Counted from the first letter of the stretch, positions 1 to 58,959 are shown. The stretch is 64,000 nucleotides of DNA from an uncultured bacterium (GCA_964631125.1 CAZVYN010000008.1:3746-67745), one strand, 5' to 3'. Translations and numbers: made by a program. Notes: a model not told the origin generated them from the letters alone.

Positions 1-285
1 TGTGTGGATCGTTGTTTTGAAGCGCGGAGCCTATTCGGTGACCTCGTCTAACCATGGCTGGCCGCTCAGCCACATCCGCGTGGTGGTGTGGGATGCGGCG
101 ACAGCGCGAGAGATCGGGAAGATCGCCGGCGCGTGAGCGAACCCGACGCGAGGATCAACAGCGCGCTGTACTTCAGAGGAAACCGCGCCGTTAGCCGCGC
201 CGTTAGCCGCGTCGAAAGTCGCGTGAGTGGCGGCACTTGCCCCAGGCTGGGCAGACTGCCTGCCAACGTTGGAGCGAGTCGACGC

Positions 286-2761: not shown

Positions 2762-5500
2762 ATGCGCGACGCTCTCCACTTCCTGAACATGAGAGATCGA
2801 TTCATGACGAAGCCCTCTTCGCGCGGCTGGTTCGCGACGGCCTGGCCCCTCTTGAACCTCTTGACCCTCTTGACCCTCTTGACCCTCTTGACCCCTTTGA
2901 CCTTCGCGGCGCTCTCGACGACGGCCGCCCTCGCGGTCGAACCGCGGGTCTACTACACGGCCCGCACCGACACGCCGCCCCACCTCGACGGCGCTCTCGA
3001 CGATTCGGTTTGGGACAACGTGGAGTGGGGCGGCGACTTCATCCAGCACGAGCCGGCCGAAGGTCAGCCCCCTTCCTGCCAGACTGCGTTCAAGATCCTC
3101 TACGACGACGACAATCTCTACCTCGCCTATCAGGCCTTCGACCCCGAGCCCCAGGCCATCTCGAGCATCTTGGGCCGACGCGACGACTTCCCCGGCGACT
3201 GGGTCGAGATCAACATCGACAGCTTCGACGACAACCGCACCGCGTTCTCCTTCACCTCGAGCGTCTCGGGAACGCAAGGAGACGAGTTCATCTCGGAGGA
3301 CGGCGACAACTGGGACGGCAACTGGGATCCGATCTGGGAGCAACAGACTCGCATCGACGACCAGGGGTGGACCGCGGAGGTCCGCATTCCGCTGGGACAG
3401 CTTCGCTACGCCGACAGCGCCGAACATGTCTGGGGCATCCAGGTGACGCGACGCATCTATCGACACGAAGAGCGCTCCGTCTGGCAGCCGGTCCCGAAGG
3501 ACGAAGAGGGGTGGGTCAGCAAGTTCGGCGAGTTGCGCGGCATCACCGGCATCAAGGCGCAGCGTCAGATCGAGCTGCTGCCGTACGCTGTCACGCAGGG
3601 AGAGAATTTCCCCAAGCAGGCGGGCAATCCGTTCGAGGACGGCAGCAAGGGTCAGGTCGCGTTCGGTCTGGACGGCAAGATCGGCGTCACCAGCGATCTG
3701 ACCGCCGACTTCACGATCAATCCCGACTTCGGGCAGGTCGAGGCCGATCCGTCACAGGTCAACCTGACGGCGTTCGAGACCTTCTTCGAGGAGAAGCGCC
3801 CGTTCTTCATCGAAGGGAAGAACATCTTCGAGTTCCGCGTCGCGCCCTCCATCGCGTTCGGCACGCACACGACCGATCGACTCTTCTACTCGCGTCGTCT
3901 CGGTCGCTCGCCGCACTATCGCGCCGACGGATTCGAGGAGGGGTACGTCGACCAACCTGGCGAGACGTCGATCGTCGGCGCGCTCAAGCTGACCGGGAAG
4001 ACGGCCAACGGCACATCGATCGGTGTGCTGGAGAGCGTGGCGGCGAGAGAGACGGCTGAGATCGATGTCGACGGCGCGAGGCGCAGAGTCGAAGTGGAGC
4101 CGTCGACCAACTACTTCGTAAGTCGCGTCCAACGAGATTTCCGCCAAGGCGACACGCGAATCGGCGGGCTCTTCACGGCGGTGAATCGGAAGATCGACAC
4201 GGACGAACTGAAGTTCGTGCACGAGGCGGCCTATACCGGCGGGCTGGATTTCTTCCACTACACGCCGGGGCGCAAGAACTACATCGCGGTCAATCTCCTG
4301 GCCAGCACGGTGCGGGGCGATGAGGCCGCCATCCTGGCGACGCAGACGGCGCCGGCGCGCTACTACCAACGCCCGGACAACAAGGGGCAGTCGGTCGACA
4401 GCACGCGGACATTGCTGGCGGGACATGGCGGTTCATTGCGGGTCGGAAATTCGCAGGGCAACCTGCGATTCGAGACCGGCGCGGCCTGGCGCTCCTCCGG
4501 CTTCGAACTGAACGACATCGGATACATGCGCAATGCCGACGAGATCAATCAGTTCTCCTGGGCCGGCTACGCCTTCCGCAATCCGTTCTCGATCTTTCGT
4601 CGGATGGATCTGAACCTGAACCAGTGGCTCGATTTCGAATTCGGCGGGGAGAATCTCTACCAGGCCCTGAACTTCAATACGAGCGCGTCGTTCCTCAACA
4701 ACTGGAGCTACAACGGCTCGGTCGCGCGTGAGAACGAGCGCATCTCGACGTATGAACTGCGCGGCGGGCCCTCGATCAAACTCCCTGGCGCGATCAGCGG
4801 CGACTTCGGATTCGACTCCGACGGGCGGCGGAAGCTCGCCTTCGGCGGCGGCGCATCGTTCAGTAGGTCCGACGATGAGGCGGGAAGCTCGAGCGGCTGG
4901 GGAATCGGCGCCTCTTATCGGCCGACGAACGCCATTCGCTTGCAGGTGGAGCCGGAGTACGAGCGGGGCCGGCCGGACATGCAGCACATCTCGCGGGTCG
5001 ACTCCGATGCCGGCTCGCGCTTCATCTACGGCAGCCTCGATCAGGAAACCTTTGCCCTGTCGTTCCGGGTCGACTACAGCGCGACGCCGGATCTCACGAT
5101 CCAGTACTACGGCGCGCCTTTCGTCTCGGCCGGCAAGTATGGCGACTTCAGGCGCATCACCGACCCGCGCGCCGAGAACTACGAAGATCGCTTCGACCGC
5201 TTCGGCGATCGCGTCGAGTTCGACGGGAAGAGCGGCCGGTACTCGGTCGACGAGGACGACGACGGCGTCGAGGACTACTCGTTCCGGAAGCCCGACTTCA
5301 ATGTGCGGGACTTCAATTCGAACCTGGTCGTTCGCTGGCAATACTCGCCGGGTTCGAGCATCTATCTGGTCTGGTCGCAGAACCGCGGCGGCTTCAACCC
5401 GGACGGCAGCTTCTCACTGAAGGACGATCTCGACGGACTCTTCGGCGTGCAGCCGCACGACGTGTTCTTGATCAAGGTGAACAGGTGGTTTGATCTTTAG
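2762..5500 (+). CDS. CBM9-like/DUF5916 domain protein (probable outer-membrane-associated hydrolase-like protein)
   Basis: N-terminal DOMON/CBM9-like region (DGALDDSVWDNVEWGGDFIQHEP...FKILYDDDNLYLAYQAFD...DWVEINIDSFDDNRTAFSF) followed by an approximately 650-aa C-terminal region. Long signal peptide containing an (LLT)n repeat. Alternative starts at 2789 and 2804. Confidence 0.6.
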   Translation: MRDALHFLNMRDRFMTKPSSRGWFATAWPLLNLLTLLTLLTLLTPLTFAALSTTAALAVEPRVYYTARTDTPPHLDGALDDSVWDNVEWGGDFIQHEPAEGQPPSCQTAFKILYDDDNLYLAYQAFDPEPQAISSILGRRDDFPGDWVEINIDSFDDNRTAFSFTSSVSGTQGDEFISEDGDNWDGNWDPIWEQQTRIDDQGWTAEVRIPLGQLRYADSAEHVWGIQVTRRIYRHEERSVWQPVPKDEEGWVSKFGELRGITGIKAQRQIELLPYAVTQGENFPKQAGNPFEDGSKGQVAFGLDGKIGVTSDLTADFTINPDFGQVEADPSQVNLTAFETFFEEKRPFFIEGKNIFEFRVAPSIAFGTHTTDRLFYSRRLGRSPHYRADGFEEGYVDQPGETSIVGALKLTGKTANGTSIGVLESVAARETAEIDVDGARRRVEVEPSTNYFVSRVQRDFRQGDTRIGGLFTAVNRKIDTDELKFVHEAAYTGGLDFFHYTPGRKNYIAVNLLASTVRGDEAAILATQTAPARYYQRPDNKGQSVDSTRTLLAGHGGSLRVGNSQGNLRFETGAAWRSSGFELNDIGYMRNADEINQFSWAGYAFRNPFSIFRRMDLNLNQWLDFEFGGENLYQALNFNTSASFLNNWSYNGSVARENERISTYELRGGPSIKLPGAISGDFGFDSDGRRKLAFGGGASFSRSDDEAGSSSGWGIGASYRPTNAIRLQVEPEYERGRPDMQHISRVDSDAGSRFIYGSLDQETFALSFRVDYSATPDLTIQYYGAPFVSAGKYGDFRRITDPRAENYEDRFDRFGDRVEFDGKSGRYSVDEDDDGVEDYSFRKPDFNVRDFNSNLVVRWQYSPGSSIYLVWSQNRGGFNPDGSFSLKDDLDGLFGVQPHDVFLIKVNRWFDL
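2849..2903. repeat. 9-bp tandem repeat (cctcttgac) x6 encoding (LLT)n in a signal peptide
   Basis: Direct repeats in the 5' end of the CBM9/DUF5916 gene. Confidence 0.8.
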
Positions 5501-5530
5501 TGCGTTGAGACCGCAGCGGTCTCAACGCAC
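5500..5530. terminator. perfect 15-bp inverted repeat with 1-nt spacer between convergent genes
   Basis: gtgcgttgagaccgc-a-gcggtctcaacgcac spans both stop codons. There is no clear U-tract. Confidence 0.4.
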
Positions 5531-7597
5531 CTCCCATCCCACCGAAACCCCGTCCTCTCCGTCCACCACTCCATGTGCGACATCCACCCGAACCTGCCCC
5601 TTCATCCCGACACTCCCCACTCGCACCCCCACGCCCCCATCCACCAACCACTCCGCGCGCCCGAACCCTCCCGTCTCGCACGGCCTCGCCGCATCCACGA
5701 ACAGCGCCCCCCCGATCCGCACCGGCCCCACGCTCCACAGCCACCGCTGGTGCTCGACGCTTCCATGCGCGAGCGCGCGGCCGAACGCGTCGCCGTCGAT
5801 CACTCGGCCGTCGTCCAAGAGCGGATGCGCACGCAGTAGCAGCGTGCGCCCCTGCCCCGTACCGGCGCCCGGCCAGAGCGCCAGTGGCGCGCGCGAACTA
5901 GCGGAAGCCACGCCGACACGGCCGCGCCACGCGCTCCACGCGTCGACTCCGGCCGACCGCCACACGGCAGAAAGGCCGACCGTGTAGAACGGCGCTTCGC
6001 CGTCGAGGTCCGTCCAGTGGGCGAGTTCGGCAGTCAGTGCGAGTCGATCCCGCGCGGCGCGCTGTTCGAACGTTCCGTCCACCGAAAGGGATGCGTCGCG
6101 GCCGTTCCACTTGTCGAGCGCGGCGCCGAAGCGATAGCGCAGGCTCGGAGTCGCCCAGTCGGAGAACGAGACCGAGCTTCGGCGGCGTTCCTCGGGGAGC
6201 GGCGAACGATCGGAGGAGCGCAACGAGTCGTCCGCGGAGGCCGCGCGAACGTACGACTGCTCTTCCCAGAATCCCGCGACGCGCCAGACGCCGGGTCTTC
6301 CGGCGACACCTGGCATGTCGAGCGAGACGGAAACGCGCGGGCGCTCTTCCCACCACCTCCCGCCCACGCTCCACCGTTCTCCATGGCCGATGAGACTGAC
6401 CACCGAGAGTTCGATCTCTCGATCGACCGCGGCCTCGACGCCGAGGCGGACGACATCCCAACGGCTCGCGAAGAGTCGCGGACGCTCGAGCACCGCAACG
6501 TCGATCTGGGCGACGTCGTCCGAGGTCGGCCGCACGGAGAGGCGAGCGGCGGAGAGCGCGGGTAACTCCTCCAGGCGACGTTGCGCAAGGCGGAAGTCGC
6601 GGCGCGTCAGCATCTCGCCCGTTGGGAGGTCGAGTTGATTCGTCACGGCGCGGTAGCGAATGGAGGAGAGACCGTCGACCTTGACGAGATCGGTGCGCGG
6701 GGCCGAGACCGCGTTCCAAGCATCGAGCGCGCCGCCGGTGTCGCCAGCCAGGTAACGGCTACCGGCCAAAAGTCTCCACGCTCGAGCATCGCGTCGATCG
6801 ACGGCGACCGCCTGCTCGGCCAGCTCGCTCGCGCCGATCCAGTCCTCGGAGAGAAAGCGCAGGCCGGCGAGTTCGCGCAGCGGAGCAGAGGATTCCGGGC
6901 AGAGAGCGGCGGCCGCGCGAAGTGTCGTTTCCGCGTCGACCCGCGCGCCGCGCTGAGCCTCGGCAATCCCACGGTCGACGATCGCGCCGCATCCGTCCAA
7001 CGAGTCGAAGGAGCGCGTCGCGGCGGAGTCGACGGGAGCGACCGCAGCGAGTGTCGAGTCGGTTCGCGCGCTACTTCCCGCAGGCGGCAACGCGGTCAGC
7101 ATCCACCGCCCACTGCTCGCCCAGGCGAGGTCGAACTCTGCTTCGCGCAGGACGCGATGGGGCCCGGAGTTCGGATCGTGAACGATGACGCCGCCGTTCG
7201 CCCAGGCAACGACCACGACATAGTGCAGGGCGCTCGAGCTCATGCCGATGGCGCTGCCGACGCCGAGCAGCGCGATGACCGGGCGGCCGCGATCGAGTTG
7301 AGTCTGCGCGGCGTCGGCGGATCCTGCCTCGACCAACGCTGTCCATCCGCGTGACTCGACGGCCGCGACGAGCGATGTGGTGGAGATCCCGGCGCCGTCG
7401 GGTTCGAGGAGGTCGGCGAAATCTTCGGCGTGAACGCCGTCCTCGCCCCAGAAGCGGAACACCATCGCGACGGCGGCGCCGCCGCAGAGAGCGGGGCTTT
7501 GCGGCACGTAGGGCGCGTCGAGAAGTCGGACCGCGCCGGCCACAGAGCAGAAGGCGGTCGCCGTCAGCAAGACGACAACCGCCACCCACGATCTCAT
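5522..7597 (-). CDS. secreted multidomain protein: peptidase C39-like (papain-fold) domain + TPR repeats + POTRA-like/beta-barrel C-terminal region
   Basis: Signal peptide. YVPQSPALCGGAAVAMVFRFWG with HYVVVVAW and HDPN forms a C39_2-type Cys/His/Asp triad. A TPR-like segment follows (AWRLLAGSRYLAGDTGGALDAW). The C-terminal 300 aa have alternating beta-strand character (IDVAVLERP..., GVGVRVGSVGMKGQVRVDVAHG). Confidence 0.55.
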   Translation of the reverse strand: MRSWVAVVVLLTATAFCSVAGAVRLLDAPYVPQSPALCGGAAVAMVFRFWGEDGVHAEDFADLLEPDGAGISTTSLVAAVESRGWTALVEAGSADAAQTQLDRGRPVIALLGVGSAIGMSSSALHYVVVVAWANGGVIVHDPNSGPHRVLREAEFDLAWASSGRWMLTALPPAGSSARTDSTLAAVAPVDSAATRSFDSLDGCGAIVDRGIAEAQRGARVDAETTLRAAAALCPESSAPLRELAGLRFLSEDWIGASELAEQAVAVDRRDARAWRLLAGSRYLAGDTGGALDAWNAVSAPRTDLVKVDGLSSIRYRAVTNQLDLPTGEMLTRRDFRLAQRRLEELPALSAARLSVRPTSDDVAQIDVAVLERPRLFASRWDVVRLGVEAAVDREIELSVVSLIGHGERWSVGGRWWEERPRVSVSLDMPGVAGRPGVWRVAGFWEEQSYVRAASADDSLRSSDRSPLPEERRRSSVSFSDWATPSLRYRFGAALDKWNGRDASLSVDGTFEQRAARDRLALTAELAHWTDLDGEAPFYTVGLSAVWRSAGVDAWSAWRGRVGVASASSRAPLALWPGAGTGQGRTLLLRAHPLLDDGRVIDGDAFGRALAHGSVEHQRWLWSVGPVRIGGALFVDAARPCETGGFGRAEWLVDGGVGVRVGSVGMKGQVRVDVAHGVVDGEDGVSVGWEVR

Positions 7598-7608
7598 GCG
7601 CTGGGAGC

Positions 7609-8028
7609 TCAGCTCGTCAGCAGGATCAAGATCAACAGGATGATGATGACCGCGGTGGCCGAGATGACGATGTTCTGTCCGCCCACGCTTTCGTCGAGTT
7701 GGACGACCTGCGCGGCGAGATCCGCGAGTTCGCTGCCGGAGAGAACGGCGGCGGCGGCGTTGGCGCGCGCCAGGTCGATTCCGGCGGCGCCCGCGATCTC
7801 GCGGACTTCAGCACGTTGCAGCAGCTGCTGAACGGCCGCCCGGTCGGCGCTCTCGCGATCGAACTGCTGATCGATCCGCGCCTGGATCGCGCCGGCGTCC
7901 ACCACGGACCTGGTCTCGACGGGTGCGTCGTTGCGAGGTTCACTCGCCTGGCTGCCGACGGCAGATGAAAGAAGCGCAGCGGCGGCGAGGACGAGGGGGG
8001 CGACGAATGCGTGGGACACCTTCATGGG
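7609..8028 (-). CDS. hypothetical secreted/C-terminally membrane-anchored protein
   Basis: Start at MKVSHAF (signal peptide). Ala/Gln-rich helical middle region. C-terminal hydrophobic anchor IVISATAVIIILLILILL. Ends 11 bp before the downstream C39/TPR gene. Confidence 0.4.
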   Translation of the reverse strand, partial: PMKVSHAFVAPLVLAAAALLSSAVGSQASEPRNDAPVETRSVVDAGAIQARIDQQFDRESADRAAVQQLLQRAEVREIAGAAGIDLARANAAAAVLSGSELADLAAQVVQLDESVGGQNIVISATAVIIILLILILLTS

Positions 8029-8129
8029 ATTCTCCTTTTGACAGAACGCGAACACTTTACGACCCGGGCCGCGCGCCCCCACGCGGCTGTGGTTTGGATC
8101 ATACGCCGGACGGCGGGAGTCCCCAACCG

Positions 8130-11100
8130 TCAGCGTAGTTGGTCCAGCGCGACTTCGACCGATCGCTCCAACTGTCGATCGATCCCACGCGCGAGTTCAT
8201 CCGGTCGATTCACCACGACGATGTCGGGTTCGCACCCGGTCCCTTCCAACGGAATGTCGTCTTTGCGCGAGTACCAACCGCGAAGCGGCAACCGGAGCGA
8301 GGATCCATCGGCAAGCGTTGTGCCGCCCGTGGAGATGACGCCCCCGTAGGTGCGCTGCCCGACGACCGGTCCGCGTCCGATCACCTGCACCGCCCAGGCG
8401 AAGATCTCGCCGTTGGAGAAAGTGTTCTCGTCGCACAACACGACGATCGGCTTCGTCCAGGCATAGATCAAACGCCGATCCTGTGGGTAGCCGCGGGCGC
8501 CGTTGCGCTCGACGGTCGTGGCGTGCGAAGGCGCCATCAGACTGGTGAGTAGATAGTCCGTGATCCATCCGCCGGAATTGTCGCGAACATCGATCACGAG
8601 CGCGTCGCGTCCGCGCGCCCGCCTGTAGAGGTCGCGCTCGTAGGTCTCGAGATTGCCGACCCCCATGGCCGTCAGATGGCAATAGCCGACGCGCCCCTCA
8701 CTGCGCGCATGGACCAGCTCCTCGCGGGCCTCGATCTCCTCCTCGTAGAGCCGCGCGCTGAAGTCGGAGTTCTTGGCTGGACGGATCGTGACCTCGCGGC
8801 GCTTCCCGTCGGCGCCGAGGACGGTGAGTCGCACCTTCTGGTCGACGGTGCGATCGAGCAGTCGAGCCAGACCGTCGGCGCCTTCGATCGCGGCGCCATT
8901 GATCTGGAGGACGACATCGCCCGGGTGGAGTCGGCTCTCCTCGCGATCGGCAGGAGTTCGGCGAACGACACGCGCCACGCGGAGTCCGGGACCTTCGAAA
9001 CCGGCGTCGAAGAGAGACCCCAGCTCGCCGGTCTCGGCGACCAGTGTCGGCATGACGTACTCGCTCGTTCCGCCGCTGAAGTTCTGGTGCGACGAGTTCA
9101 GCTCTCCGATCATCATGCGCACGACATCCTGGAAGTCGCGGTGCGTCGAGGCGGCCAGCGCCCAGGGGCGATAGTGTTCGCGCATGCGTGGCCAGTCGAC
9201 GCCGTGCATCTTCTCGTCGTAGAAGCGGGCGCCGAGTTCACGCCACGCCTCATCGAAGACGTAGCCGCGGCGGGCGACGCGATCGAGCGTCATCTCCGAC
9301 TCGAACGGGTAGCTGGTCACCTCGCCGCCGTCGGTCCCGACCGAGGCGATCGAACCACCCGACTCGAGGAAGAACAACTTCTTCTGCTTCGCGTCCCAGC
9401 GGACCTGCGACGGCTCGACCCCCGCCTTGGTCAACCGCTCCAGCTCGGTTCCGTCCCACTTCACCTTCCAGAGGTCGCGTTTCCCGTCGGTGTCGCCGGT
9501 GAAGAAGAACTCCGCGCTGTCCTTGCCGATGAGCACGTCGCGCTCCTGGCCCGGCAGGCTCGTCAACTTGCGCACGCGAAGGGGCAAATCGTCGAAGTCG
9601 ATCTTGACTTCGACGACGGCGGAGTCAGCCTTGCCGCCATTGTCCTCACCTTTGTCCTTCTCGTCCTTGGCCGAGCCCGACTTCTTCCTCGGCTTCTCCT
9701 CCTCGTCGCTCAGGTCGCGTTTGCTCATCGCATCGAGACGGTCGATGCGCGAGAGCTCTTCGTCTTCACGCTGCAGTCGGACGTACCAGAGGTCGACTTC
9801 ATTGCGCACCTGTCGCTCGGAGACGAAGGCGATCAACTTGCCGTCGGACGACCAGGTGGGCGCCGTGTCGTTTCCTGGGCGTTGGGTCACATTGAACGGC
9901 TCGCGCGAGCCGTCGACCGGCTCGATCCAGATCTCGCTGTTCGAGTCCTCGTCGGACTGTGAGTAGACGATCCATTTCCCGTCGGGCGACCAGTCGTAGG
10001 CGAGGTCGGTCCATCCATCGACGAGTACGCGCTCGTTCGTCGTCTTGCCGTCCTCGAGCTTGACCAGAACGAGCGCGCCGATTCCCCGTTGGAACAGGAG
10101 GCGCCTCCCGTCAGGAGAGAGCAGCGGGCGGCTCTCCTCGGCGGGAGTTCGCGTCAGCGGGGTGATCTCGACCGAGAGCGTTCGGGCGAGGCGCGGCTCC
10201 TTCTCGTCGGTGGAGCGGAGCAGATAGAGGTCGCGGTTGCCGTCGCGGTCGGAGACGTAGATGAGCCCCTTCGAATCGTCCAGCCAGACCGGCGACTGGT
10301 CCCGCGCGGCCGACGAGGTGAGACGGGTCGCGTAGGTCTCGTCCTTCTCGGATTTCATCGCGAAGAGCTCGCCTTCATGCACGAAGGCCAGTTGTTCGCC
10401 ATCTTCCGAGACGGCGAACTCCGTCGCGTTCCCTTTCACCGCCACACGCACGACCGAAGCAGCGTTGGAGTCACGAGGCAACGTGATGACCAACTTCTGC
10501 GGAGCCTCCGCTTTCTGGCCGCTCCGCAATTCTTCCCCCGTCGGCGCCGCCACGACGTACAGATCCGACTCGTACTCGAACGTCGCGACCGCTCCGTTCG
10601 CGCTCAATCGCGGATGCCGCAACCGTCCGTCCGTGAACCGCGTGATCAACCAGCGCGATCCATCTGCGATCGACAGGACGCACAGATTCGAGGCGCCGTT
10701 CTTCTCGCGCAGATAGAGCAGGTGACGTCCGTCCGGCAGCCATTGCGGGACCCCGGTCATCTGCGGGTCAGGAACAAGCGATCCGGGCGCGGTGAAGTCG
10801 CTCAGGTTCGTCACGCGCCCGTCTGCCCGCAGCGCGCACTGCGCATGCAGCCCGGGGCCGGTGGCGACCGCATCGTCCCCCTCGACGTCCGGCGCATCAC
10901 GCGGCGTCCCCTCGGCGCCCGCGCGCCACCAATCACCCGTCAACGGCGTCGTCGGCTCATGGAGCCAGAGTCGATGGCGACCGTTCCCACTATAGTTGCG
11001 CCACCACCAGAAGACGCCTCCGCGGATGTACGCGAGCTTCGATCCATCGGGCGAGAGCACCGCCGATCTCGCGCCGGTCGGAAGAATCGGCCAGGCCGCT

Positions 11101-11588
11101 CCGCCTTCGAGCGGTGCGACCCACGCGCCGGGGGTGTTGCCATCCCGGACATGTCGTGTGCTCTGGAAGAGCACGGCTCGACTGTCGCTCGTCCAACCGG
11201 TGGGGACATCGGCGCCGCTGTGCCAGGTAAGGCGCTGGATATCGCCGGCCTCGACCGGGATCGCATAGACATCGTCGTTGCCGTCGCGGTCTGATGCGAA
11301 GGCGATCCACTTTCCATCGGGCGACCAGATCGGATGCGCGTCGTACGCGGCGTGCGCGGTGAGCCGTCGCGCTTCGCCACCCTGACGCGCGACGGTCCAG
11401 AGGTCGCCCTGGTACGAGAAGGCGATGGAGCGGCCGTCCGGACTCGGGGCCGGATGTCGGGCCAAGAGGATCGGATCGGCGGCGAGCGCGGGCGCAGTCG
11501 CGGGCGCGATCGTCGGCCCGACGGTCGTCACGAAAAGCAAAGCGCCGATCAGGACGATCGCGACACGATTCAACTTTCCAACGACCAT
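8130..11588 (-). CDS. tricorn protease homolog (S41 peptidase with beta-propeller and PDZ domains)
   Basis: PD40-type propeller repeats (SPDGRSIAFSYQGDLWTV, SPDGKWIAFASDRDGNDD). PDZ domain. C-terminal S41 domain (YAWTKPIVVLCDENTFSNGEIFAWAVQ...GQRTYGG). About 1150 aa. Signal peptide after MVVGKLNRVAIV. Confidence 0.85.
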   Translation of the reverse strand: MVVGKLNRVAIVLIGALLFVTTVGPTIAPATAPALAADPILLARHPAPSPDGRSIAFSYQGDLWTVARQGGEARRLTAHAAYDAHPIWSPDGKWIAFASDRDGNDDVYAIPVEAGDIQRLTWHSGADVPTGWTSDSRAVLFQSTRHVRDGNTPGAWVAPLEGGAAWPILPTGARSAVLSPDGSKLAYIRGGVFWWWRNYSGNGRHRLWLHEPTTPLTGDWWRAGAEGTPRDAPDVEGDDAVATGPGLHAQCALRADGRVTNLSDFTAPGSLVPDPQMTGVPQWLPDGRHLLYLREKNGASNLCVLSIADGSRWLITRFTDGRLRHPRLSANGAVATFEYESDLYVVAAPTGEELRSGQKAEAPQKLVITLPRDSNAASVVRVAVKGNATEFAVSEDGEQLAFVHEGELFAMKSEKDETYATRLTSSAARDQSPVWLDDSKGLIYVSDRDGNRDLYLLRSTDEKEPRLARTLSVEITPLTRTPAEESRPLLSPDGRRLLFQRGIGALVLVKLEDGKTTNERVLVDGWTDLAYDWSPDGKWIVYSQSDEDSNSEIWIEPVDGSREPFNVTQRPGNDTAPTWSSDGKLIAFVSERQVRNEVDLWYVRLQREDEELSRIDRLDAMSKRDLSDEEEKPRKKSGSAKDEKDKGEDNGGKADSAVVEVKIDFDDLPLRVRKLTSLPGQERDVLIGKDSAEFFFTGDTDGKRDLWKVKWDGTELERLTKAGVEPSQVRWDAKQKKLFFLESGGSIASVGTDGGEVTSYPFESEMTLDRVARRGYVFDEAWRELGARFYDEKMHGVDWPRMREHYRPWALAASTHRDFQDVVRMMIGELNSSHQNFSGGTSEYVMPTLVAETGELGSLFDAGFEGPGLRVARVVRRTPADREESRLHPGDVVLQINGAAIEGADGLARLLDRTVDQKVRLTVLGADGKRREVTIRPAKNSDFSARLYEEEIEAREELVHARSEGRVGYCHLTAMGVGNLETYERDLYRRARGRDALVIDVRDNSGGWITDYLLTSLMAPSHATTVERNGARGYPQDRRLIYAWTKPIVVLCDENTFSNGEIFAWAVQVIGRGPVVGQRTYGGVISTGGTTLADGSSLRLPLRGWYSRKDDIPLEGTGCEPDIVVVNRPDELARGIDRQLERSVEVALDQLR

Positions 11589-11690
11589 GCACCCCCCGAG
11601 AAAAAGGTCGTGAAGCAATCCGGCGGGGGCAGGCTACCCGAACCACGCCCGCAGCGGGCACACACTCCGTCGATCTGATAGGGTCGTTCG

Positions 11691-12140
11691 ATGGCTGAAT
11701 TGTTCTGCCTCGACGACCGGGACGACCGGGGGCGGCTCTTCATCTCGGGCGCGTTCCACGATTGGGCGCCCATCCACGCGGCCGGCATCGATGTCGTGAT
11801 CGACCTGGAAGGAGATCTGGACCCCGGCGTTCCCACGACGCCGGGTCGAGTCCTCTATATCTACTTCCCGATCCACGACGGCGACCTTCCGAACCTGGCC
11901 AAGCTCCACGCCGTGGCAGCGCTCTGCGCCTCACTCATCCAGTCCGGCCACTGCGTCCTCTCTCACTGCACGATGGGATTCAACCGCTCGGCGCTGTTAG
12001 CCGGCGTGATCCTGCATGAAATGGGCTGCGACGGACCTCGAGCGATCGACCAGATCCGCCAGCGCCGCGAAGGGGCGCTGTGGAACGACGTGTTCGAGGA
12101 GTACCTGCGCGGATTGCCGGGGAAGGGTCCTGCTGGGTGA
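11691..12140 (+). CDS. dual-specificity protein phosphatase
   Basis: Catalytic loop VLSHCTMGFNRSA fits HCx5R(S/T). 149 aa. Confidence 0.7.
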   Translation: MAELFCLDDRDDRGRLFISGAFHDWAPIHAAGIDVVIDLEGDLDPGVPTTPGRVLYIYFPIHDGDLPNLAKLHAVAALCASLIQSGHCVLSHCTMGFNRSALLAGVILHEMGCDGPRAIDQIRQRREGALWNDVFEEYLRGLPGKGPAG

Positions 12141-12162
12141 CGTCAATGGTTCGATGAACCCC

Positions 12163-12216
12163 CGGCCCGACCGGACCGAGCCACGGGCGCCGGGGTGTTT
12201 GGGCTCGGCCGGTCGG
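12163..12216. terminator. inverted repeat between convergent genes (candidate bidirectional terminator)
   Basis: cccgaccggaccgagcc ... ggctcggccggtcgg forms a 15-bp imperfect inverted repeat with a T-rich loop. It lies between the phosphatase stop (12140) and the FG-GAP gene stop (12231). Confidence 0.4.
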
Positions 12217-12230
12217 ACGCGGAGAACTCG

Positions 12231-13916
12231 TCAGCGCTGCGGCAGGAATTGAGTCGCGGCGGTGCTTTGTTCGGCGACGAGCCCCTCGGTCGAAGGACGT
12301 TCGGCCCACACTCTTGCGAAGTAGACGCCCGAGGCCGCTAGGTGGCCGTCGCCGAGACGTGCGTCCCAGAGAGCAAAGCGAGCGCCTTCGGCGCCGGAGT
12401 TCAAGCGGAGCAGGGCCACACGCGAACCTGCGGCGTTGTAGATCGCGACGCTAGCTTCGGGGATCCTCTCGGCGAGCGCGACATCGCGCAGATCCAGGCG
12501 CACCGCGCCTGTGGACGGATTCGGAAACGCCACTAGCCGTAGGCCGGTTGTGCGCGAGTTGTGCGGATCCTGCGGTCCGTGTGGTCCTTGTGGTCCGTCC
12601 GGTTCGACAGACGTCGCGGTGAGCTGCTCGGTCACCGTCGTCTTCGTACCGACCGGAACGCCGGGGACGATCTGCGTGATGCGCGCGCCGGCCGATCCGG
12701 GCCAAACGATCCTCAAGTCGACCGTCGTCCGACCCGGAAGTCCGAAGTGTCCGCCCATCTGGTTCTGAGGCGCGAAGCCCGACTGTGCGCAGATCTCGCG
12801 GACGCCCAGTCGGTACTCGGGCAGACCGGCGAAGCCCGCCTCGTACACTTCGACTCGCGCGCCGATGCCGTCGCGATTGGAGTAGCCGGCCCCCTGTGCG
12901 TGGAAACGCCCGGCCAGCTCGACCGTGAGGCCGTCGCTGGAGTCGGTGTCGTTGAGGAAGAGGTAGTTGTCGTTGGGGGAGTGTTCGTTGGCGGCGGCGA
13001 CGTCGAGGTCGCCATCGTTGTCGACATCGCCCCAAGAGAGCCCATCGGTGCTGCCGAGCCCGAACTCGGCAACCTCCGTGAACGAGCCGTCGCCGTTGTT
13101 CAGATACAGATAGTTCTGCTCGGCGGACGTGAAGTCGCCGTTCGCGGTTGCGCAGTCGAGGTCGCCGTCGTTGTCGGCGTCCCCCCATGAGATCGCATTC
13201 GTGTCGCGCGCTCCGAACGCGGGCGATGCGGTGAACGAGCCGTCGCCGTTGTTCGTGTACAACGCGCAGCCGTCGGCATTCCAGTTTCCGACCGCCATGT
13301 CCAAGTCGCCGTCGTTGTCACAGTCGGCCCAGGCGAGCGACGCGGTGTCTTTCATGCCGAATTGCGCCTGCTCCGTCCATGTCCCGTTGCCGTTGTTGAT
13401 GTAGAGATAGTTCTGTCGAGTCGCGCCGAGGATTCCGTTGCCGGTGGCCAGGTCGAGATCGCCGTCGCGGTCGTAGTCGGCCCAGGCCGCCGTAACGGTG
13501 CGACGCGCCACGGCGGAGAAGGGCGGCGCCGTCGTGTAGTTTCCGCCGCCGTCGTTGGTATGGAGCGCGTTCAGACCAGCGCCGCGACCCTCGGCCAGGT
13601 CGAGATCGCCGTCGTTGTCGCAATCCCCGAACACCATCGCGAAGCACTGAGAAGCGCCCCCCCATTGCTGGACGATGGTGAAGTCTCCCGCGCCGTCGTT
13701 GACGTAGAGGGACTTCGGCACGCCACCGTCGACCACTGCCGCATCGAGATCGCCGTCGCGGTCGACATCGCCCCACGAGATCGTGAGCGTGTTTCCGACT
13801 CCGAACTCTTGGCGTTGGATGAACCCGGCTTGGGCGACAGCGACGAATGTGGCGGTGCTCGCGACCGTCGCTACGGCCGCGAAGTTCACGGCTGTCGCTA
13901 CGGCCAACGCGAGCAT
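12231..13916 (-). CDS. FG-GAP/VCBS repeat protein with C-terminal T9SS-type sorting domain
   Basis: At least six repeats of the form GDxDxDGDLD / FG...G. C-terminal FPNPSTGAVRLDL...GVYFARV (Por_Secre_tail/FlgD-Ig-like). The true start is the internal ATG at 13916 (signal peptide MLALAVATAVNFAAVATVASTA). Confidence 0.7.
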   Translation of the reverse strand: MLALAVATAVNFAAVATVASTATFVAVAQAGFIQRQEFGVGNTLTISWGDVDRDGDLDAAVVDGGVPKSLYVNDGAGDFTIVQQWGGASQCFAMVFGDCDNDGDLDLAEGRGAGLNALHTNDGGGNYTTAPPFSAVARRTVTAAWADYDRDGDLDLATGNGILGATRQNYLYINNGNGTWTEQAQFGMKDTASLAWADCDNDGDLDMAVGNWNADGCALYTNNGDGSFTASPAFGARDTNAISWGDADNDGDLDCATANGDFTSAEQNYLYLNNGDGSFTEVAEFGLGSTDGLSWGDVDNDGDLDVAAANEHSPNDNYLFLNDTDSSDGLTVELAGRFHAQGAGYSNRDGIGARVEVYEAGFAGLPEYRLGVREICAQSGFAPQNQMGGHFGLPGRTTVDLRIVWPGSAGARITQIVPGVPVGTKTTVTEQLTATSVEPDGPQGPHGPQDPHNSRTTGLRLVAFPNPSTGAVRLDLRDVALAERIPEASVAIYNAAGSRVALLRLNSGAEGARFALWDARLGDGHLAASGVYFARVWAERPSTEGLVAEQSTAATQFLPQR

Positions 13917-14267
13917 CTTCGGCGGCGCCGCCTGCGCCTGCGCCTGCGCTCGCGCCTGTGCTCGCGCCTTCGTCTCGCCCGTCGCCCTCGCCGCGCTGGC
14001 TCGAGCTTCCTGGAATCGTTGCGTCACCCGCTCCTCCTTCGCGCCGCGTCGGCGCGTGTCCGTCCCGTGACTGCGCGAGAGGCCCCGAGTCTCTCGCCGA
14101 CGGGACAATCGACCCGCGGAGACGAACCGCGGCAAAGGAAGGGATGAGCGGACCTCGAGCAGGGACGAAGTGGCGCGTGGCGCGGGCGAACGGCGTGGGC
14201 GTGGGCGCGCGAGTGAAGGATTCGGCGTGAGAACCGGCCGGAGTCGACGTCCGCTCGAAGGCGAAGA

Positions 14268-14320
14268 TTGTGAAAAATGGTGCAACTATTGCCGGCAACA
14301 GTTGCACCATTTTTCACAAG
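14268..14320. terminator. 53-bp AT-rich near-perfect palindrome, copy 1 (probable bidirectional intrinsic terminator)
   Basis: ttgtgAAAAAtGGTGCAACTATTGCCGGCAACAGTTGCACCaTTTTTcacaag. The arms pair 25 of 26 positions. The one mismatch becomes a G-U pair on the minus-strand RNA. A GC-rich stem is flanked by A5 and T5. It lies 99 bp downstream of the DinB_2 gene stop, after a gcgtcccc x3 repeat. It is identical to the copy at 53393..53445. Confidence 0.6.
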
Positions 14321-33026: not shown

Positions 33027-35291
33027 CTAGCGCAACAGCGCCTTGCCCGAAGCTGCGTACCCGGCGCCGGTCAGGCGGATGAAGTAGACGCCCGGGGCGA
33101 GCGAACGTCCATCACGGTCGAGGCCGTCCCACGGCAGTTCCGTGCGACCGGCCGCGAACGAGTGGTCGGCGAGGAGCGCGACCTGTCGTCCGGTGACATC
33201 GTGCACCGCCACGCGCGCGTCGCCGGCTCTCGGAATCTCCAGCAGGATGCGGGCGCCCCCTGAGCTGGGGTTCGGCGCGATGGCGTCGATGCTCGCTCGC
33301 ACCGCGGAAACGAAATCCCCTTCGGCCACGTCGCTGCTCGCTCCGAGCTGAACCTCGGCCAAGAGCCAGAGCGCGTTCTCCGCATTGATCTCGACATGCC
33401 CTTGGTTGCCGCTCGGGAAATAGACGGCGTCGAAGGGAGTGTGCGAGAGGATGTCGACGTCGCCCGCGATGTCGTAGAAGAGATTGCTCGTGTCGAGTGC
33501 GAGCGCGCTGACCGAGGGGATGAAACAGTGATTCGGGTGGAGCGCGACGATGTCGCCGTACGGCGCGGACGTCGCATCCATTTGCGCCATGCTGTTGCGC
33601 CATCCGCCCGACGCGTTGTCGTAGGGGAGCGTGCCCGAGACATTCACGGTCTGGGATTCTTCGGGCAGGAAGATGATGTCGACCAGCCCTTGGAAGATCG
33701 TTCCGTTGCCGGGGAACGGAGTCGCCCAGACGTTGCCCGTCACATCGACGAGGAAACTGGTGTACTCCCAGTCGATGATCTGAGAGCCGGCGGAGAACCC
33801 TTGGCTGACCTGCGCGCCGCTGCCGTTCGCCACCGCGACCTTGCGCGGCTGCGACGGATAGCCGCCGAGCACGTTGAAATCATTGAGGAGCTGCACGCGG
33901 AGCGGATCGACTTGGCCGGTTCCGCCGGGGGGGTCGGTGTGGTGATAGACCAACATCTGCCGCGCGCCCGGCGTGTCGAGTGTCGCGAGCAATGCGCCGG
34001 CCTCCTCGGAGTCGTCGGCGAAGAACGAGAGCCAGTACTGGATGCCGAGCGGAATGCTCGCGCCTTTCTGCGGCGAGTCGAACGAGATGAAGGTCCGGGC
34101 GCGATGCTCCGGGCCGTTGGTCTCCATGTGGGCGAGCGCGTAGCGACCGACCAAGCCGCCCATGCTCGCGCCGACCAACGCGAAATCTTGTGAGGGTGAG
34201 ATCGTCGCCTGGATCTGCTCGATCAGTTCGACCGCGACGTACGCATTCCGCTGGATGTGCGTGACGGCGTCGTCGAAATTGAGGACCACCGCGTCGTAGC
34301 CGAGCGCGCGCAGGTTCTCCAGGAGCTGCTCGCGGTTGAGCAGCGCATACAGTTCGTCCCAGTTCATCGAGTTGTCCAGGTCGAAACCCTCGATCACGAC
34401 GACCGGGTTGGTGATCGAGGCGTGTTCCTCGGCCAGATAGACATAGGCCTCGCCGGTCCCGGCGATACTCTGGTACGGGATCGACGCGGTGATCTGCAGC
34501 GTGTCGTCGGGCGCGGGCGTTCCGAGCGCGCGCACATCGAAGACGAAGAAGGCATTCTCGCTGGCCGGCGTCGCGTCAGTCGGCCGCAGGCGCATCCGAA
34601 TCAACTTTTGACCCGTCGTCGAGTAACTCACGTCCACCGGCTGATCGAGCCGCACCGCCCGATACCCCAACCCATCCTCGAAGTCGATCTCCACCGTCGA
34701 GGGCGCCGGTCGGTCGTTCGAGAGATATCTCTCGCGCGAGAACTCGAACTTCACCGACTCGCCGCGATACGTGTAGGTGCGCGCCGCCGCCGCCGCCACG
34801 ACCCGCAGTGACAGGAACGCATCGCCGGTCCCCAGCGCTAGGCGTTCTCCCCGCGCGACGAGCGCTCCGCTCTCCAACACATCCGGCCGGAGCCGCTGGT
34901 AGGCGAAGTCGATCGCAACGATCGGGATCACGCCGTCTGGCGCCCCGGCGCGAAGGTCGCGTCGGGTCGACTCGTCGATCGAAGCCAGCGACGGCCAGTT
35001 CGGCTCACGGACCGAAGCGCGTGTGATCTCGTCGAGCATCTGTCGCCACTCTCGGAGCGTCCCGACCTTGGCGGAGGCGGAACCGTCATAGCGGTCGATC
35101 TCGGAGAGCGAGAGCACGCGGTCGTAGAGGATCCCGCTCGGGATGCTGGAGGCCGGCAGGTCGTCGAGGGTCGCGGCCACGCGCTCGCTGACACTGAGCG
35201 CGCTCGACACCGCGATCGACACCGTGCTCGATAGTGCGGCGGAGCAGACCAAGAAGAAGAAGACGGCGACGTCCGCGCGGATCCGGAACAT
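33027..35291 (-). CDS. secreted alpha/beta-hydrolase (lipase/esterase-like, GxSxG) with C-terminal T9SS-type sorting domain
   Basis: Nucleophile elbow VGASMGGLVG. Signal peptide. C-terminal APNPSSGGARILLEIP...GVYFIRL. Confidence 0.55.
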   Translation of the reverse strand: MFRIRADVAVFFFLVCSAALSSTVSIAVSSALSVSERVAATLDDLPASSIPSGILYDRVLSLSEIDRYDGSASAKVGTLREWRQMLDEITRASVREPNWPSLASIDESTRRDLRAGAPDGVIPIVAIDFAYQRLRPDVLESGALVARGERLALGTGDAFLSLRVVAAAAARTYTYRGESVKFEFSRERYLSNDRPAPSTVEIDFEDGLGYRAVRLDQPVDVSYSTTGQKLIRMRLRPTDATPASENAFFVFDVRALGTPAPDDTLQITASIPYQSIAGTGEAYVYLAEEHASITNPVVVIEGFDLDNSMNWDELYALLNREQLLENLRALGYDAVVLNFDDAVTHIQRNAYVAVELIEQIQATISPSQDFALVGASMGGLVGRYALAHMETNGPEHRARTFISFDSPQKGASIPLGIQYWLSFFADDSEEAGALLATLDTPGARQMLVYHHTDPPGGTGQVDPLRVQLLNDFNVLGGYPSQPRKVAVANGSGAQVSQGFSAGSQIIDWEYTSFLVDVTGNVWATPFPGNGTIFQGLVDIIFLPEESQTVNVSGTLPYDNASGGWRNSMAQMDATSAPYGDIVALHPNHCFIPSVSALALDTSNLFYDIAGDVDILSHTPFDAVYFPSGNQGHVEINAENALWLLAEVQLGASSDVAEGDFVSAVRASIDAIAPNPSSGGARILLEIPRAGDARVAVHDVTGRQVALLADHSFAAGRTELPWDGLDRDGRSLAPGVYFIRLTGAGYAASGKALLR

Positions 35292-56952: not shown

Positions 56953-58959
56953 ATGGGACAGGATCTACAACCAACGCTTCGCGCTCTGGCGCTAGGACTC
57001 ACGCTCCTCGCGGCATGCTCAACCGCCGGAGAGAGCCGGGCCGAGACCCTCTACGATTTGACGTTCGGTCTGCCGCACGCGCCGACCTTTCCGGCCGTGG
57101 AAGGCGCCGGGCCCACGCCCCGCAGAGTCGTCTCGCCGGCCCTGGATACGATGCCGATCGTGGTGGCGGTTCACGGCGCGCTGACCGATCAACCGCTCGA
57201 GTTGGTGGCGACCGACACCGGGAGCCCTTTCGACGACCAGCAGTTCGACCTGAGGCTCGATGATCTGCCGGCGGCGGAGCTCTACTCGATCGAAGCGGAC
57301 GTCCTGGTCACGGCGGGCGAGCTGAACGCGAGCATCACGCTGCTGATCGACGCCCCCGCCGTCCGCGCGATCGACTTTCAGGCGGATGGCGAGATCTGGG
57401 GCTGGGCCTCCGGCGGCAGCATCTTCTCGCTCGGGAGCTTCACGCTCGGGGAGGTCGTCCACCTACGCGTCGATGTCGATCTCGAGGTGGACAGTTGGTC
57501 GATCTGGATCGACGGCGTGCTCACCGCCGTGGAGGACTTCGAGTCGGCCAGTTCGATCACCACGGTTCGGATGGGAACAGACGTCTCGGTGCTGGGGCCG
57601 TCGATCTCCGGCGCGGTCGACAATCTCGTCATCTCGATTCCGGACGAGGGCCCTTGCTCTCGCGTGCGGTTCAACGACCTGACTCTCGGCGATCAGTGGG
57701 TCGAAGGCGAGAGCTTCGTCTCGGACGATGTCCGAGTCGATGTGAGCGAGTTCTACTTCGACGTTGGTCCATGCGGGGGCGCCAGCTCGAGCGGATTCAC
57801 GAAAGTCGTCGGCACGGCGCTGGCCTGCGCCGGGGGGAAGGAACTCGAAGTCAACAACGTCACGCTCGACTTCGACTTTCACGGCCCGGTCACGGACGTC
57901 TTGATTCGCTACGGCGAATACGGCGGCGAGGTCTCGCTGGGCGTGAATGGCGCCTGCGAGGTCGTGGTGGATATGAACGATCTGAGCGGCGCGGTTCTGG
58001 GCGGCGTCCTCGTCACGGTCTTCGACGACGACCTGGCGGCGGACGGGTGCGGAGTCATCCGACTGGGCGGAGAAGTCACGCAGCTCTCGATCGGCGGCCA
58101 GGAGCTCTTCATCGACCAGATCAGTTACTGCCCGGCCTGCGTCGACCTGAAGCGATCCGCGTTCGAGGACCAGGCGATGGGGGATCAGTTCTTCGTCGGT
58201 GAAACGTTCTCGAGCGGGGCGGCGACACACAACTTCCGCCGCTTCTCGCCGCCGGGCGCCGACTGCTCCGTCCTCGTCGCGAATGGCGTCGCCACGATCG
58301 ACTCAGGCGACGCTGCTTGCCAGGACGGTTTGGAACTCGGGCTGAACAACATCAACGACCAGATCACTTTCGACCAGGAGATCACCTGGCTCGCGCTCGC
58401 CTATGGAGAGTTCGGCGGCAACATCAACCTTCGGATCAACGGCGAATGCCGCAATGCGGGCAACTTCGCCGAACTCAGCGGCGACTTGATCGGCGGCGTC
58501 CTGGTCTGGGCGGTGGACTACAGCGATCCGGGCCAGGGCTGCGGCACGCTCTACGCCGTCGGCGCGATCGAAGAGTTCACGATCGGCGGTCAGGAGCTCT
58601 GGATCGATAACGTCCGAACCTGTCTCGACGCGACGACGGGACTGGAGGAGGGCGTGCCGGAGTCGCTGGTCGCCGCGTCCCGGCTGGCTCGGCTGCGGCA
58701 GAGCGTTCCGAATCCGGCGCGATCCGGCGCGGAGATCCGCTTCGACCTGGCGCGGTCGGCGCCTGTCGCCCTCTCGATCCACGATGTCGCCGGGCGTCTG
58801 GTGCGCGAACTCGTGGTCGGCCGGTTCGAGGCTGGATCACACCGCGTCTCGTGGGATGGACGGGACGCGAGCGGTCAGCCCGTCGCGGCCGGCGTCTACC
58901 TGTACCGAATCGACGCGGAGGGCGCGACAGAGACGAGGAGGATGGTGGTGGTGAACTAG
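56953..58959 (+). CDS. secreted repeat-domain protein with C-terminal T9SS-type sorting domain
   Basis: Lipoprotein-like signal peptide. Two copies of a domain of about 200 aa (…GEYGGEVSLGVNGACEVVVDM… / …GEFGGNINLRINGECRNAGNF…). C-terminal VPNPARSGAEIRFDL...GVYLYRI. Confidence 0.45.
   Translation: MGQDLQPTLRALALGLTLLAACSTAGESRAETLYDLTFGLPHAPTFPAVEGAGPTPRRVVSPALDTMPIVVAVHGALTDQPLELVATDTGSPFDDQQFDLRLDDLPAAELYSIEADVLVTAGELNASITLLIDAPAVRAIDFQADGEIWGWASGGSIFSLGSFTLGEVVHLRVDVDLEVDSWSIWIDGVLTAVEDFESASSITTVRMGTDVSVLGPSISGAVDNLVISIPDEGPCSRVRFNDLTLGDQWVEGESFVSDDVRVDVSEFYFDVGPCGGASSSGFTKVVGTALACAGGKELEVNNVTLDFDFHGPVTDVLIRYGEYGGEVSLGVNGACEVVVDMNDLSGAVLGGVLVTVFDDDLAADGCGVIRLGGEVTQLSIGGQELFIDQISYCPACVDLKRSAFEDQAMGDQFFVGETFSSGAATHNFRRFSPPGADCSVLVANGVATIDSGDAACQDGLELGLNNINDQITFDQEITWLALAYGEFGGNINLRINGECRNAGNFAELSGDLIGGVLVWAVDYSDPGQGCGTLYAVGAIEEFTIGGQELWIDNVRTCLDATTGLEEGVPESLVAASRLARLRQSVPNPARSGAEIRFDLARSAPVALSIHDVAGRLVRELVVGRFEAGSHRVSWDGRDASGQPVAAGVYLYRIDAEGATETRRMVVVN

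Follow-up and report, generated by a model that had tools for sequence, protein, structure and literature searches.

A conserved envelope gene pair in uncultured bacteria: a C39 peptidase fused to a predicted Omp85-type barrel and a small partner with a covarying Gly-Gly site

Proteins of the Omp85 superfamily are central to outer-membrane biogenesis and type V secretion, and a survey of the superfamily distinguished BamA, TamA, BamA-like, Lipo, FhaC, Hmw1B, patatin, Metallo, WD40 and noNterm classes, none of them a class with a peptidase or with tetratricopeptide repeats (TPRs) (PMC4104836). In PlpD (type Vd secretion), a single polypeptide combines an N-terminal patatin lipase, shown to be periplasmic (PMC11116518), one polypeptide-transport-associated (POTRA) domain and a C-terminal Omp85 barrel. 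The transporters of two-partner secretion (type Vb), such as FhaC and CdiB, have two POTRAs and an H1 plug helix and serve a large exoprotein with a two-partner secretion (TPS) domain. The double-glycine peptidase domains of PCAT1, ComA and LahT are cytoplasmic, sit on inner-membrane ATP-binding cassette (ABC) exporters and remove an N-terminal leader, and FapD is an active periplasmic C39 protease required for export via an outer-membrane barrel (PMC5557850). In addition, the catalogued PA2778/PA2779 gene pair places a small protein beside a C39 peptidase. Here we describe two adjacent genes, B and C, in a 64,000-nt stretch of DNA from an uncultured bacterium (GCA_964631125.1 CAZVYN010000008.1:3746-67745; this whole stretch is called the window, and positions are counted from its first letter). 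C encodes a C39 peptidase domain followed by TPRs, a POTRA and a predicted Omp85-type barrel, and B encodes a small protein with a Gly-Gly site that is kept where the partner has a C39 domain and lost beside intact partners that lack it.

The pair resembles several of these systems in part. C is closest to PlpD in design, to the PCAT peptidases in enzymology and to two-partner secretion in genetic logic, and the pair fully belongs to none of them, since it lacks a patatin domain, an ABC transporter, a second POTRA and a TPS cargo. C and PlpD both unite an N-terminal enzyme, one POTRA and a C-terminal Omp85-type barrel in one chain; unlike PlpD, C carries a C39 peptidase and TPRs instead of the patatin passenger of type Vd, has a dedicated conserved partner gene, and its barrel is too divergent for the Pfam Omp85 model. 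In contrast to the PCAT-type domains, C is predicted to be Sec-exported and is fused to an outer-membrane barrel, and its proposed site lies near the C-terminus of the substrate, where cleavage would remove an anchor. FapD and its barrel FapF likewise bring together a Sec-exported, active periplasmic C39 protease and an outer-membrane barrel (PMC5557850), and one C homolog weakly matches the FapD model; however, FapD and FapF are not fused to each other, FapF, a trimeric barrel of 12 strands, is not an Omp85 protein, and no amyloid subunit genes are present here. Compared with the TpsB transporters, C lacks the type Vb layout: it has one POTRA, only the signal-peptide helix precedes the peptidase in the model, and the partner is a 138-aa helical protein. 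Compared with BamA and TamA, it has one POTRA, unrelated N-terminal domains and multiple copies in some genomes, and the Pfam Omp85 family PF01103 is matched by 4 of 40 aligned C homologs (best E=5e-5; the 40 sequences are 41-84% identical to C). A full-text literature search found no published C39-TPR-POTRA-Omp85 class. The gene pair is listed in NCBIfam yet apparently unstudied, and neither the barrel fusion nor the Gly-Gly covariation seems to have been described before.

Gene layout and conservation of the pair

Open reading frame (ORF) calling places the minus-strand ORFs A, B and C at 5522-11618 (Table 1); A and B are 104 bp apart, B and C 11 bp. This agrees with an earlier note on this DNA, which had described three genes of about 1150, about 140 and 691 aa with gaps of 100 and 11 bp. 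The same note had recognised A as a tricorn protease homolog, B as a signal-peptide protein with a C-terminal anchor, and C as a papain-like C39 peptidase joined to TPRs, a POTRA and a barrel, and these assignments hold up: Pfam domains and a match to a solved tricorn protease support the first, sequence and model the second, and Pfam, profile search, model and fold searches the third. The mechanical ORF of B extends up to a GTG at 8082 (a 157-aa form); its start is best read as the ATG at 8025, behind the Shine-Dalgarno sequence.

Table 1. Positions in the window of genes A, B and C and of the features recognised in B and C.
Feature	Residues (aa)	Window position (nt)	Strand	Basis or remarks
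Gene A		8130..11618	-	1162 aa, TTG start; tricorn-like protease
Gene B		7609..8025	-	138 aa, ATG start preceded by AAGGAGA Shine-Dalgarno sequence
B signal peptide	1-27		-	followed by four helices, Gly-Gly and C-terminal hydrophobic helix
B amphipathic helix	98-114	7684-7734	-	directly ahead of Gly-Gly
B Gly-Gly, proposed C39 cleavage site	Gly115-Gly116	7678..7683	-	homolog conservation and model break
B hydrophobic tail QNIVISATAVIIILLILILLTS, predicted membrane anchor	22 residues	7612..7677	-	sequence; helix 123-137 in model
Gene C		5522..7597	-	691 aa; signal peptide, C39 peptidase, linker, TPR, POTRA, Omp85-type barrel
C signal peptide	1-22	7532..7597	-	N-terminal hydrophobic helix in model; cleavage past VAGA inferred by eye
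C39 double-glycine-type peptidase domain	26-171	7085..7522	-	
C catalytic codons	Gln33; Cys38; His125; Asp141	7499-7501; 7484-7486; 7223-7225; 7175-7177	-	
Flexible linker between peptidase and TPRs	178-200	6998..7066	-	pLDDT <50, length varies in alignment
Three TPR repeats, six helices	202-296	6710..6994	-	profile matches, Pfam, model helices
Near-invariant cysteines	Cys203; Cys233	6989-6991; 6899-6901	-	start of TPR helix 1; end of helix 2
Single POTRA, beta-alpha-alpha-beta-beta	301-371	6485..6697	-	model secondary-structure order, pLDDT >90
Omp85-type barrel region	373-691	5525..6481	-	helix 379-392, then 15 modelled strands to C-terminus
Long conserved loop, candidate L6	567-607	5777..5899	-	LWxGAGTGxGR...LLRAHPLL, invariant Arg589-Ala590-His591
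Candidate wall partner of loop	Phe633-x-Asp635-x-Ala637	5687-5701	-	all invariant, two strands beyond loop

Database searches with C returned more than 790 homologs, mostly of about 690 aa and matching over their full length. A scan of one genome per species found that 256 genomes encode a C relative, and we examined the best 80 loci together with as much as 10 kb of flanking DNA in either direction. These belong to Candidatus Eisenbacteria and Krumholzibacteriota (~50-55% identity) and to the Vicinamibacteria of the Acidobacteriota (~40-43%). B adjoins C on the same strand in about 70 of the 80 loci, with usual gaps of 4-130 bp, and the loci without a visible B are mostly at contig ends. It lies upstream except in L050 (12115-12498) and L080 (2674-3057), where it is found just downstream, as it is also in a further locus, L151 (4256-4642); the order of the pair is thus not fixed. 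All-against-all ORF clustering of the 80 loci placed the next commonest neighbour in 29 of them and revealed no protease among the conserved neighbours. Judged from this gene order, B and C are a conserved, self-contained two-gene module, predicted to belong to the cell envelope. Two or three C copies occur on separate contigs of some genomes (L014, L030 and L039 in one Krumholzibacteriota metagenome-assembled genome; L032 and L034 in one from the Vicinamibacteria), and each copy has an adjacent B where upstream DNA is present (L030 begins at a contig end), so that the module is multi-copy in some organisms.

Both proteins can be related to catalogued families. B scores 41.3 bits against NCBIfam NF033919, the PA2779 family (40.5 bits for the 157-aa ORF; cut-off 40), and this model matches 32 of 32 B homologs, some of which NCBI already names 'PA2779 family protein'; database searches with B returned the same lineages only. 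Against NF033920, the model for the PA2778 family cysteine peptidase, C reaches 60.9 bits, short of the equivalog cut-off of 150, and its match spans profile positions 3-166 out of 255. This is nevertheless the best NCBIfam match for 40 of 40 C homologs, which public records call simply 'C39 domain-containing protein'. Relative to PA2778, C has an additional POTRA-Omp85 barrel of ~395 residues, too large for the 255-position model. The trait of being encoded beside a PA2779 protein, which goes with the PA2778 family, is found in the window and in the ~70 of 80 loci just described. The earlier note could match the locus to no described system; the passing score of B and the best match of C show that the pair is in fact catalogued, though functionally uncharacterised. 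PA2779 itself is listed as just 'hypothetical' (PMC3985676). We found no literature on the function of either family, and a tblastn search of plasmid records for a barrel-less PA2778/PA2779 pair gave only unrelated C39 domains.

The peptidase of C and the Gly-Gly site of B

Pfam recognises only the N-terminal peptidase of C (Peptidase_C39_2 at aa 26-143, 49.3 bits against a cut-off of 24; Peptidase_C39, 28.5 bits). A profile search of solved structures relates this domain to the double-glycine domains of ComA (E=1.3e-7) and PCAT1, and in a fold search it superposes on LahT150 at 2.0 A. The structure of C was modelled with AlphaFold on the 40-homolog alignment (mean predicted local distance difference test (pLDDT) 83.8, predicted template modelling score 0.70); alignment A1 and the model omit the initial Met, and protein numbers, used here, are one higher than theirs. 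The Cys/His/Asp triad that the earlier note had proposed was located at Cys38 (QSPALCGG), His125 (HYVVVV) and Asp141 (HDPN), and these residues, together with Gln33, are invariant in the 40 homologs. The His-Asp spacing of 16 residues is the same as that between the catalytic His101 and Asp117 of LahT150 (PMC6363468). C thus has the papain-like fold, the triad and the oxyanion Gln of peptidase family C39, and its C39 domain is predicted to be catalytically competent.

The decisive feature of B is its Gly-Gly site, which is absent from the earlier note. In the AlphaFold model of B (pLDDT 72), helix 98-114 is separated from the tail helix 123-137 by the model's one unstructured break, and Gly115-Gly116 lies in it. 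B homologs of ~130 aa share a signal peptide, a helical region ending in ...LSGxxLxxLAxQARxVNxxL-[VA]-G-G, 3-8 further residues and a strongly hydrophobic helix. All but one of the 156 database homologs have the GG, and in these 155 the fragment that follows it is 21-27 residues long. Position -4 to the GG is Leu in 138 of the 155 (89%) and Phe in 10, position -3 is Val or Ala, and large hydrophobic or Ala residues at -4, -8, -11, -15 and -18 line one helix face. The C39 site has been summarised as 'lv-x-GG', with Gly-Ala as a known alternative (PMC5557850), and LahT recognises a helix plus GG (PMC6363468); the L-[VA]-G-G of B and its upstream helix therefore fit both the 'lv-x-GG' site and recognition of the LahT type. 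B is the sole ORF in the window with a comparable GG-plus-tail motif, and a search for fold analogues of B in the PDB gave no significant match (all E >1).

The site covaries with the C39 domain of the partner. All 123 C39-associated B proteins retain G-[GA]: B carries GG in all 68 genome loci with a C39-bearing partner, and among 55 such metagenome loci it has GG in 54 and GA in one (L162, 1829-2215, where B reads L-A-G-A-G). Conversely, the GG is lost at all three loci where the partner is intact and signal-peptide-bearing but C39-less (L082, L085 and L086); there B is upstream of the partner and keeps its tail, and ALAQSN, ALADN and ALAND replace the GG. In the genome set, the association of GG with C39 gives a Fisher p=1.7e-5, uncorrected for phylogeny. 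The C39-less barrels are interspersed in the family, their nearest relatives being C39-bearing proteins, and the three GG-less B proteins are mostly not mutual nearest relatives, which suggests more than one independent loss. Four further C39-less barrels have no adjacent B (L083, L084, L143 and L160). The last two were added by the metagenome scan, which also yielded the ambiguous L151 and otherwise mostly C39-bearing loci.

On balance, and without strong confidence, we think it probable that the C39 domain, held by the barrel at the outer membrane, cuts B after the Gly-Gly and frees the ectodomain from its anchor. B would be Sec-exported and kept anchored by the C-terminal hydrophobic helix, offering an amphipathic helix that ends in L-[VA]-G-G just outside the anchor; cleavage past Gly116 would then release a helical ectodomain of ~88 residues from the 22-residue anchor. 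Several points weigh against this proposal. The score of C stops short of the PA2778 equivalog cut-off, and PF13529-type domains are not all double-glycine peptidases. The hydrophobic register of B (-4, -8, -11, -15) departs from the canonical -4, -7, -12, and the Gly-Gly could be kept merely as a helix breaker ahead of the anchor. The C39-less class comprises three loci, and the test made on it takes no account of phylogeny. At L151, B has the GG and the barrel ORF upstream of it lacks C39; this ORF begins inside the POTRA, lacks a signal peptide and borders unrelated genes on the minus strand, and it looks like, and may be, a truncated remnant. Finally, if the tail of B lies in the inner membrane, as we presume, a peptidase tethered to the outer membrane must span the periplasm, which is conceivable with a disordered linker of 23 residues.

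Alternatively, C might be a stand-alone peptidase in the manner of PlpD that acts on other envelope or surface proteins, with B as an accessory (an inhibitor, chaperone or tether) and its GG serving a structural role. B does remain paired with the peptidase-less barrels of L082, L085 and L086, a relation to the scaffold that is independent of cleavage; PlpD shows that enzymes with non-transport roles occur on Omp85 scaffolds (PMC11116518), and FapD, a periplasmic C39 protease, is still without a known target (PMC5557850). We nonetheless regard this as unlikely, since it leaves unexplained the GG and the Leu at -4 (kept in 123/123 C39-associated B proteins, lost in 3/3 C39-less cases) and no other ORF of the window offers a comparable motif. 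If C does cut B, as we prefer, the same persistence of B beside peptidase-less TPR-POTRA-barrels indicates that B probably binds the scaffold itself, with cleavage as an added layer.

The C-terminus of B also looks tripartite (motif, hydrophobic helix, very short tail), and the GG and helix could instead be a sorting tag, comparable to those of the GlyGly-CTERM/rhombosortase or LPXTG/sortase systems, through which the C39 domain would transfer B to a component of the envelope. Papain-fold cysteine peptidases form acyl-enzyme intermediates, which can in principle be resolved by transfer. The GlyGly-CTERM system combines a GG, a transmembrane helix and a basic cluster on many cargos with a rhombosortase gene; B shows a GG and a helix, and the typical C-terminal basic cluster is mostly absent from it. 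Moreover, the motif sits on one dedicated small protein that is conserved over its whole length and not on many cargos, with a single such ORF in the window. We know of no transpeptidation by C39 peptidases, and a sorting role strikes us as highly improbable beside hydrolytic release of B.

The TPR, POTRA and barrel region of C

The TPR block matches consensus TPR proteins in profile searches (per-stretch E ~1e-6 to 1e-7), and Pfam TPR families match 34 of 40 C homologs. Cys203 and Cys233 could form a disulfide, and a near-invariant Cys pair is consistent with an oxidising, extracytoplasmic location of the block. Beyond it, two independent fold searches both assign the last 390 residues of C to the Omp85 superfamily; among them, Foldseek retrieved BamA (E=5e-14), TamA (E=4e-13) and FhaC (E=7e-10). 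Fold alignments to CdiB, TamA and BamA extend over 357-389 residues and cover the POTRA as well as the barrel, being longer than the barrel alone. BamA and TamA score nearly as high as CdiB, and the barrel subtype is not separated by fold score. PF01103 gave zero matches on C even at E up to 10; membership of C in the Omp85 superfamily rests on fold, not sequence. The superfamily traits found in C are a POTRA and a predicted membrane beta-barrel of Omp85 fold.

The barrel would have 16 strands, since the long loop comes past strand 10 and 15 strands are modelled, and both counts imply that the model lacks one N-terminal strand. The absent strand is probably the segment that was modelled, at lower confidence, as a helix. 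A hallmark of Omp85 proteins is the loop L6, which lies inside the barrel and whose conserved Arg motif VRGF/Y forms a salt bridge with the wall motif FxDxG (PMC9355242). In C, a 41-residue loop that sits between strands in the model is the most conserved segment of the family in the 40-homolog alignment. This loop and the Phe633/Asp635/Ala637 motif resemble the hallmark, and their residue pattern and position would fit their being L6 and its wall partner.

Used alone, the barrel of C retrieves 747 cluster representatives (50% identity). The full architecture is present in 113 of the best 150 barrel matches, and several of the shorter ones have a signal peptide and no C39. A different arrangement is seen at L160, where B is not nearby: a 599-aa protein (1129-2925), whose C-terminus has TPRs and whose N-terminal part was not recognised, is encoded ahead of a distinct gene (2980-4350) for a signal peptide, POTRA and barrel. 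This two-gene arrangement may represent a split or alternative version of the scaffold.

The earlier note had treated two observations as grounds for giving up its reading, namely that no C-terminal barrel is predicted or that the catalytic triad is not conserved; we found the C-terminus modelled as an Omp85-type barrel and the triad invariant in the 40 homologs. Its interpretation survives in part: the domain reading stands on Pfam, model and folds, whereas its proposed operon partner fails on synteny (see below) and its analogy with the exporters PgaA, BcsC and PelB on fold ranking. In those exporters, TPRs are joined directly to a polysaccharide-export porin encoded beside polymer synthesis genes, a layout that C does not have, and a PgaA/BcsC-type exporter is ruled out by the fold ranking and the POTRA.

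In the reading that we favour, C would be Sec-exported and inserted in the outer membrane via the 16-stranded Omp85-type barrel with its one POTRA. The N-terminal extension (C39 domain, flexible linker and three TPRs) would most likely be periplasmic; we place the POTRA, TPRs and peptidase on this side because of the analogy with characterised Omp85 proteins, including PlpD. The TPR/POTRA portion probably binds B. After cleavage, the released domain of B may stay periplasmic, or may pass the barrel as in two-partner secretion.

The latter route leads to a further explanation, processing-coupled secretion, in which C is an Omp85 translocon with its own peptidase that recognises B via the TPR/POTRA portion, cuts at the GG and, at the same time or afterwards, exports the ectodomain to the surface or medium in a two-partner-like manner; C would then be the outer-membrane counterpart of the peptidase-containing ABC exporters. 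However, C has one POTRA and not two, and no N-terminal plug helix; B is without a TPS domain, and for this helical protein of 138 aa the PDB search gave no significant fold analogue. The nearly equal scores of BamA, TamA and CdiB do not assign the barrel to one subtype, and in PlpD the passenger-like domain is periplasmic (PMC11116518), so that such domains are not necessarily exported. Export of the ectodomain through C seems to us rather doubtful.

Gene neighbourhood and significance of the module

Gene A encodes PD40 repeats, Tricorn_C1, PDZ and Peptidase_S41 domains by Pfam, and its best solved relative is the tricorn protease 1k32 (E=1.5e-35, aa 786-1162); all the tricorn domains (beta-propellers, C1, PDZ and S41 catalytic domain) are thus present. 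The earlier note had counted this protease as part of the module, and one may ask whether the three genes are transcribed together as an operon for proteolysis or for processing and export, with the giant tricorn-like protease and the peptidase-barrel protein acting jointly. The three genes share a strand with short gaps and no terminator-like site between them (a negative that is rather uninformative for this phylum), all three products have export signals, the A-B-C order recurs in L081, and the C39-less L086 is flanked by M1 and PD40/S9 peptidases. On the other hand, none of the 80 genome loci examined in other species has a tricorn-like gene up to 10 kb from the pair, and the neighbour-ORF clustering shows no conserved protease. 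A adjoins the pair only in L081, where A is 93% and C 81% identical to the proteins of the window, so that recent common ancestry explains the shared order. A single operon of this kind is very improbable in our judgement. Synteny argues against A as a member of the module, and on this evidence A appears to be an unrelated neighbour, although its co-transcription with B and C in this organism is possible.

At L086, the same-strand flanking genes are an M1-family peptidase and a PD40/DPPIV/S9 peptidase (1-1896 and 4227-5792); they loosely echo the tricorn-like neighbour of the window, and the pattern is not general across loci. Further conserved neighbours of the pair were sought among the 80 loci, and none occurs in more than 29 of them. 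The commonest clusters comprise a sigma-54 activator, an OmpA/PKD protein and a histidine kinase. A convergent gene for a sigma-54-dependent activator (XylR_N/V4R/AAA+/HTH_8) lies just downstream of C in L001 (11981-13663, minus strand) and 28 other loci, and an OmpA/PKD outer-membrane protein is encoded on the strand of C in L002 (4243-6120, plus strand) and 22 others; neither gene is in the window.

In the window, the gene downstream of C is convergent (2762-5500, plus strand) and encodes a 912-aa protein with DUF5916 and CBM9 domains; its stop codon and that of C are only 21 bp apart. The signal-peptide region of this protein contains the short repeat LLNLLTLLTLLTLLTPLTF, implying a 9-bp tandem DNA repeat. 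Divergent from A lies a gene (11691-12140, plus strand) for a 149-aa dual-specificity-phosphatase-like protein (DSPc, 38.4 bits) with a weak match to a polymorphic-toxin phosphatase family. It is followed by a gene (12231-14285, minus strand) for an FG-GAP/ASPIC protein with a terminal FlgD_ig-like domain. This C-terminal domain is repeated at 33072-33275 (minus strand) and 58678-58920 (plus strand) with 33-40% identity, so that several proteins of the organism may share a C-terminal domain for sorting or secretion. No sigma-70-like promoter was found at A-B-C, which says little for this phylum; Rfam gave zero matches across 5000-12500, and a PADLOC search for anti-phage defence systems gave zero matches.

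The C family is large (747 barrel clusters and at least 256 species genomes) and is found in poorly studied soil and sediment phyla. Since its barrel is invisible to the Pfam Omp85 model, surveys based on barrel hidden Markov models would have overlooked it. If the ectodomain of B were secreted through C, the pair would represent a route that existing type V classes do not cover, and a widespread one among uncultured soil phyla (Eisenbacteria, Krumholzibacteriota, Vicinamibacteria). For the PA2778/PA2779 families, the pair provides a functional hypothesis, namely that a Sec-exported double-glycine peptidase cuts its neighbour at a C-terminal L-[VA]-G-G just outside the anchor. Periplasmic C39 peptidases such as FapD are without a defined substrate (PMC5557850), and B/C, with its one obvious candidate, would be a useful model for them.

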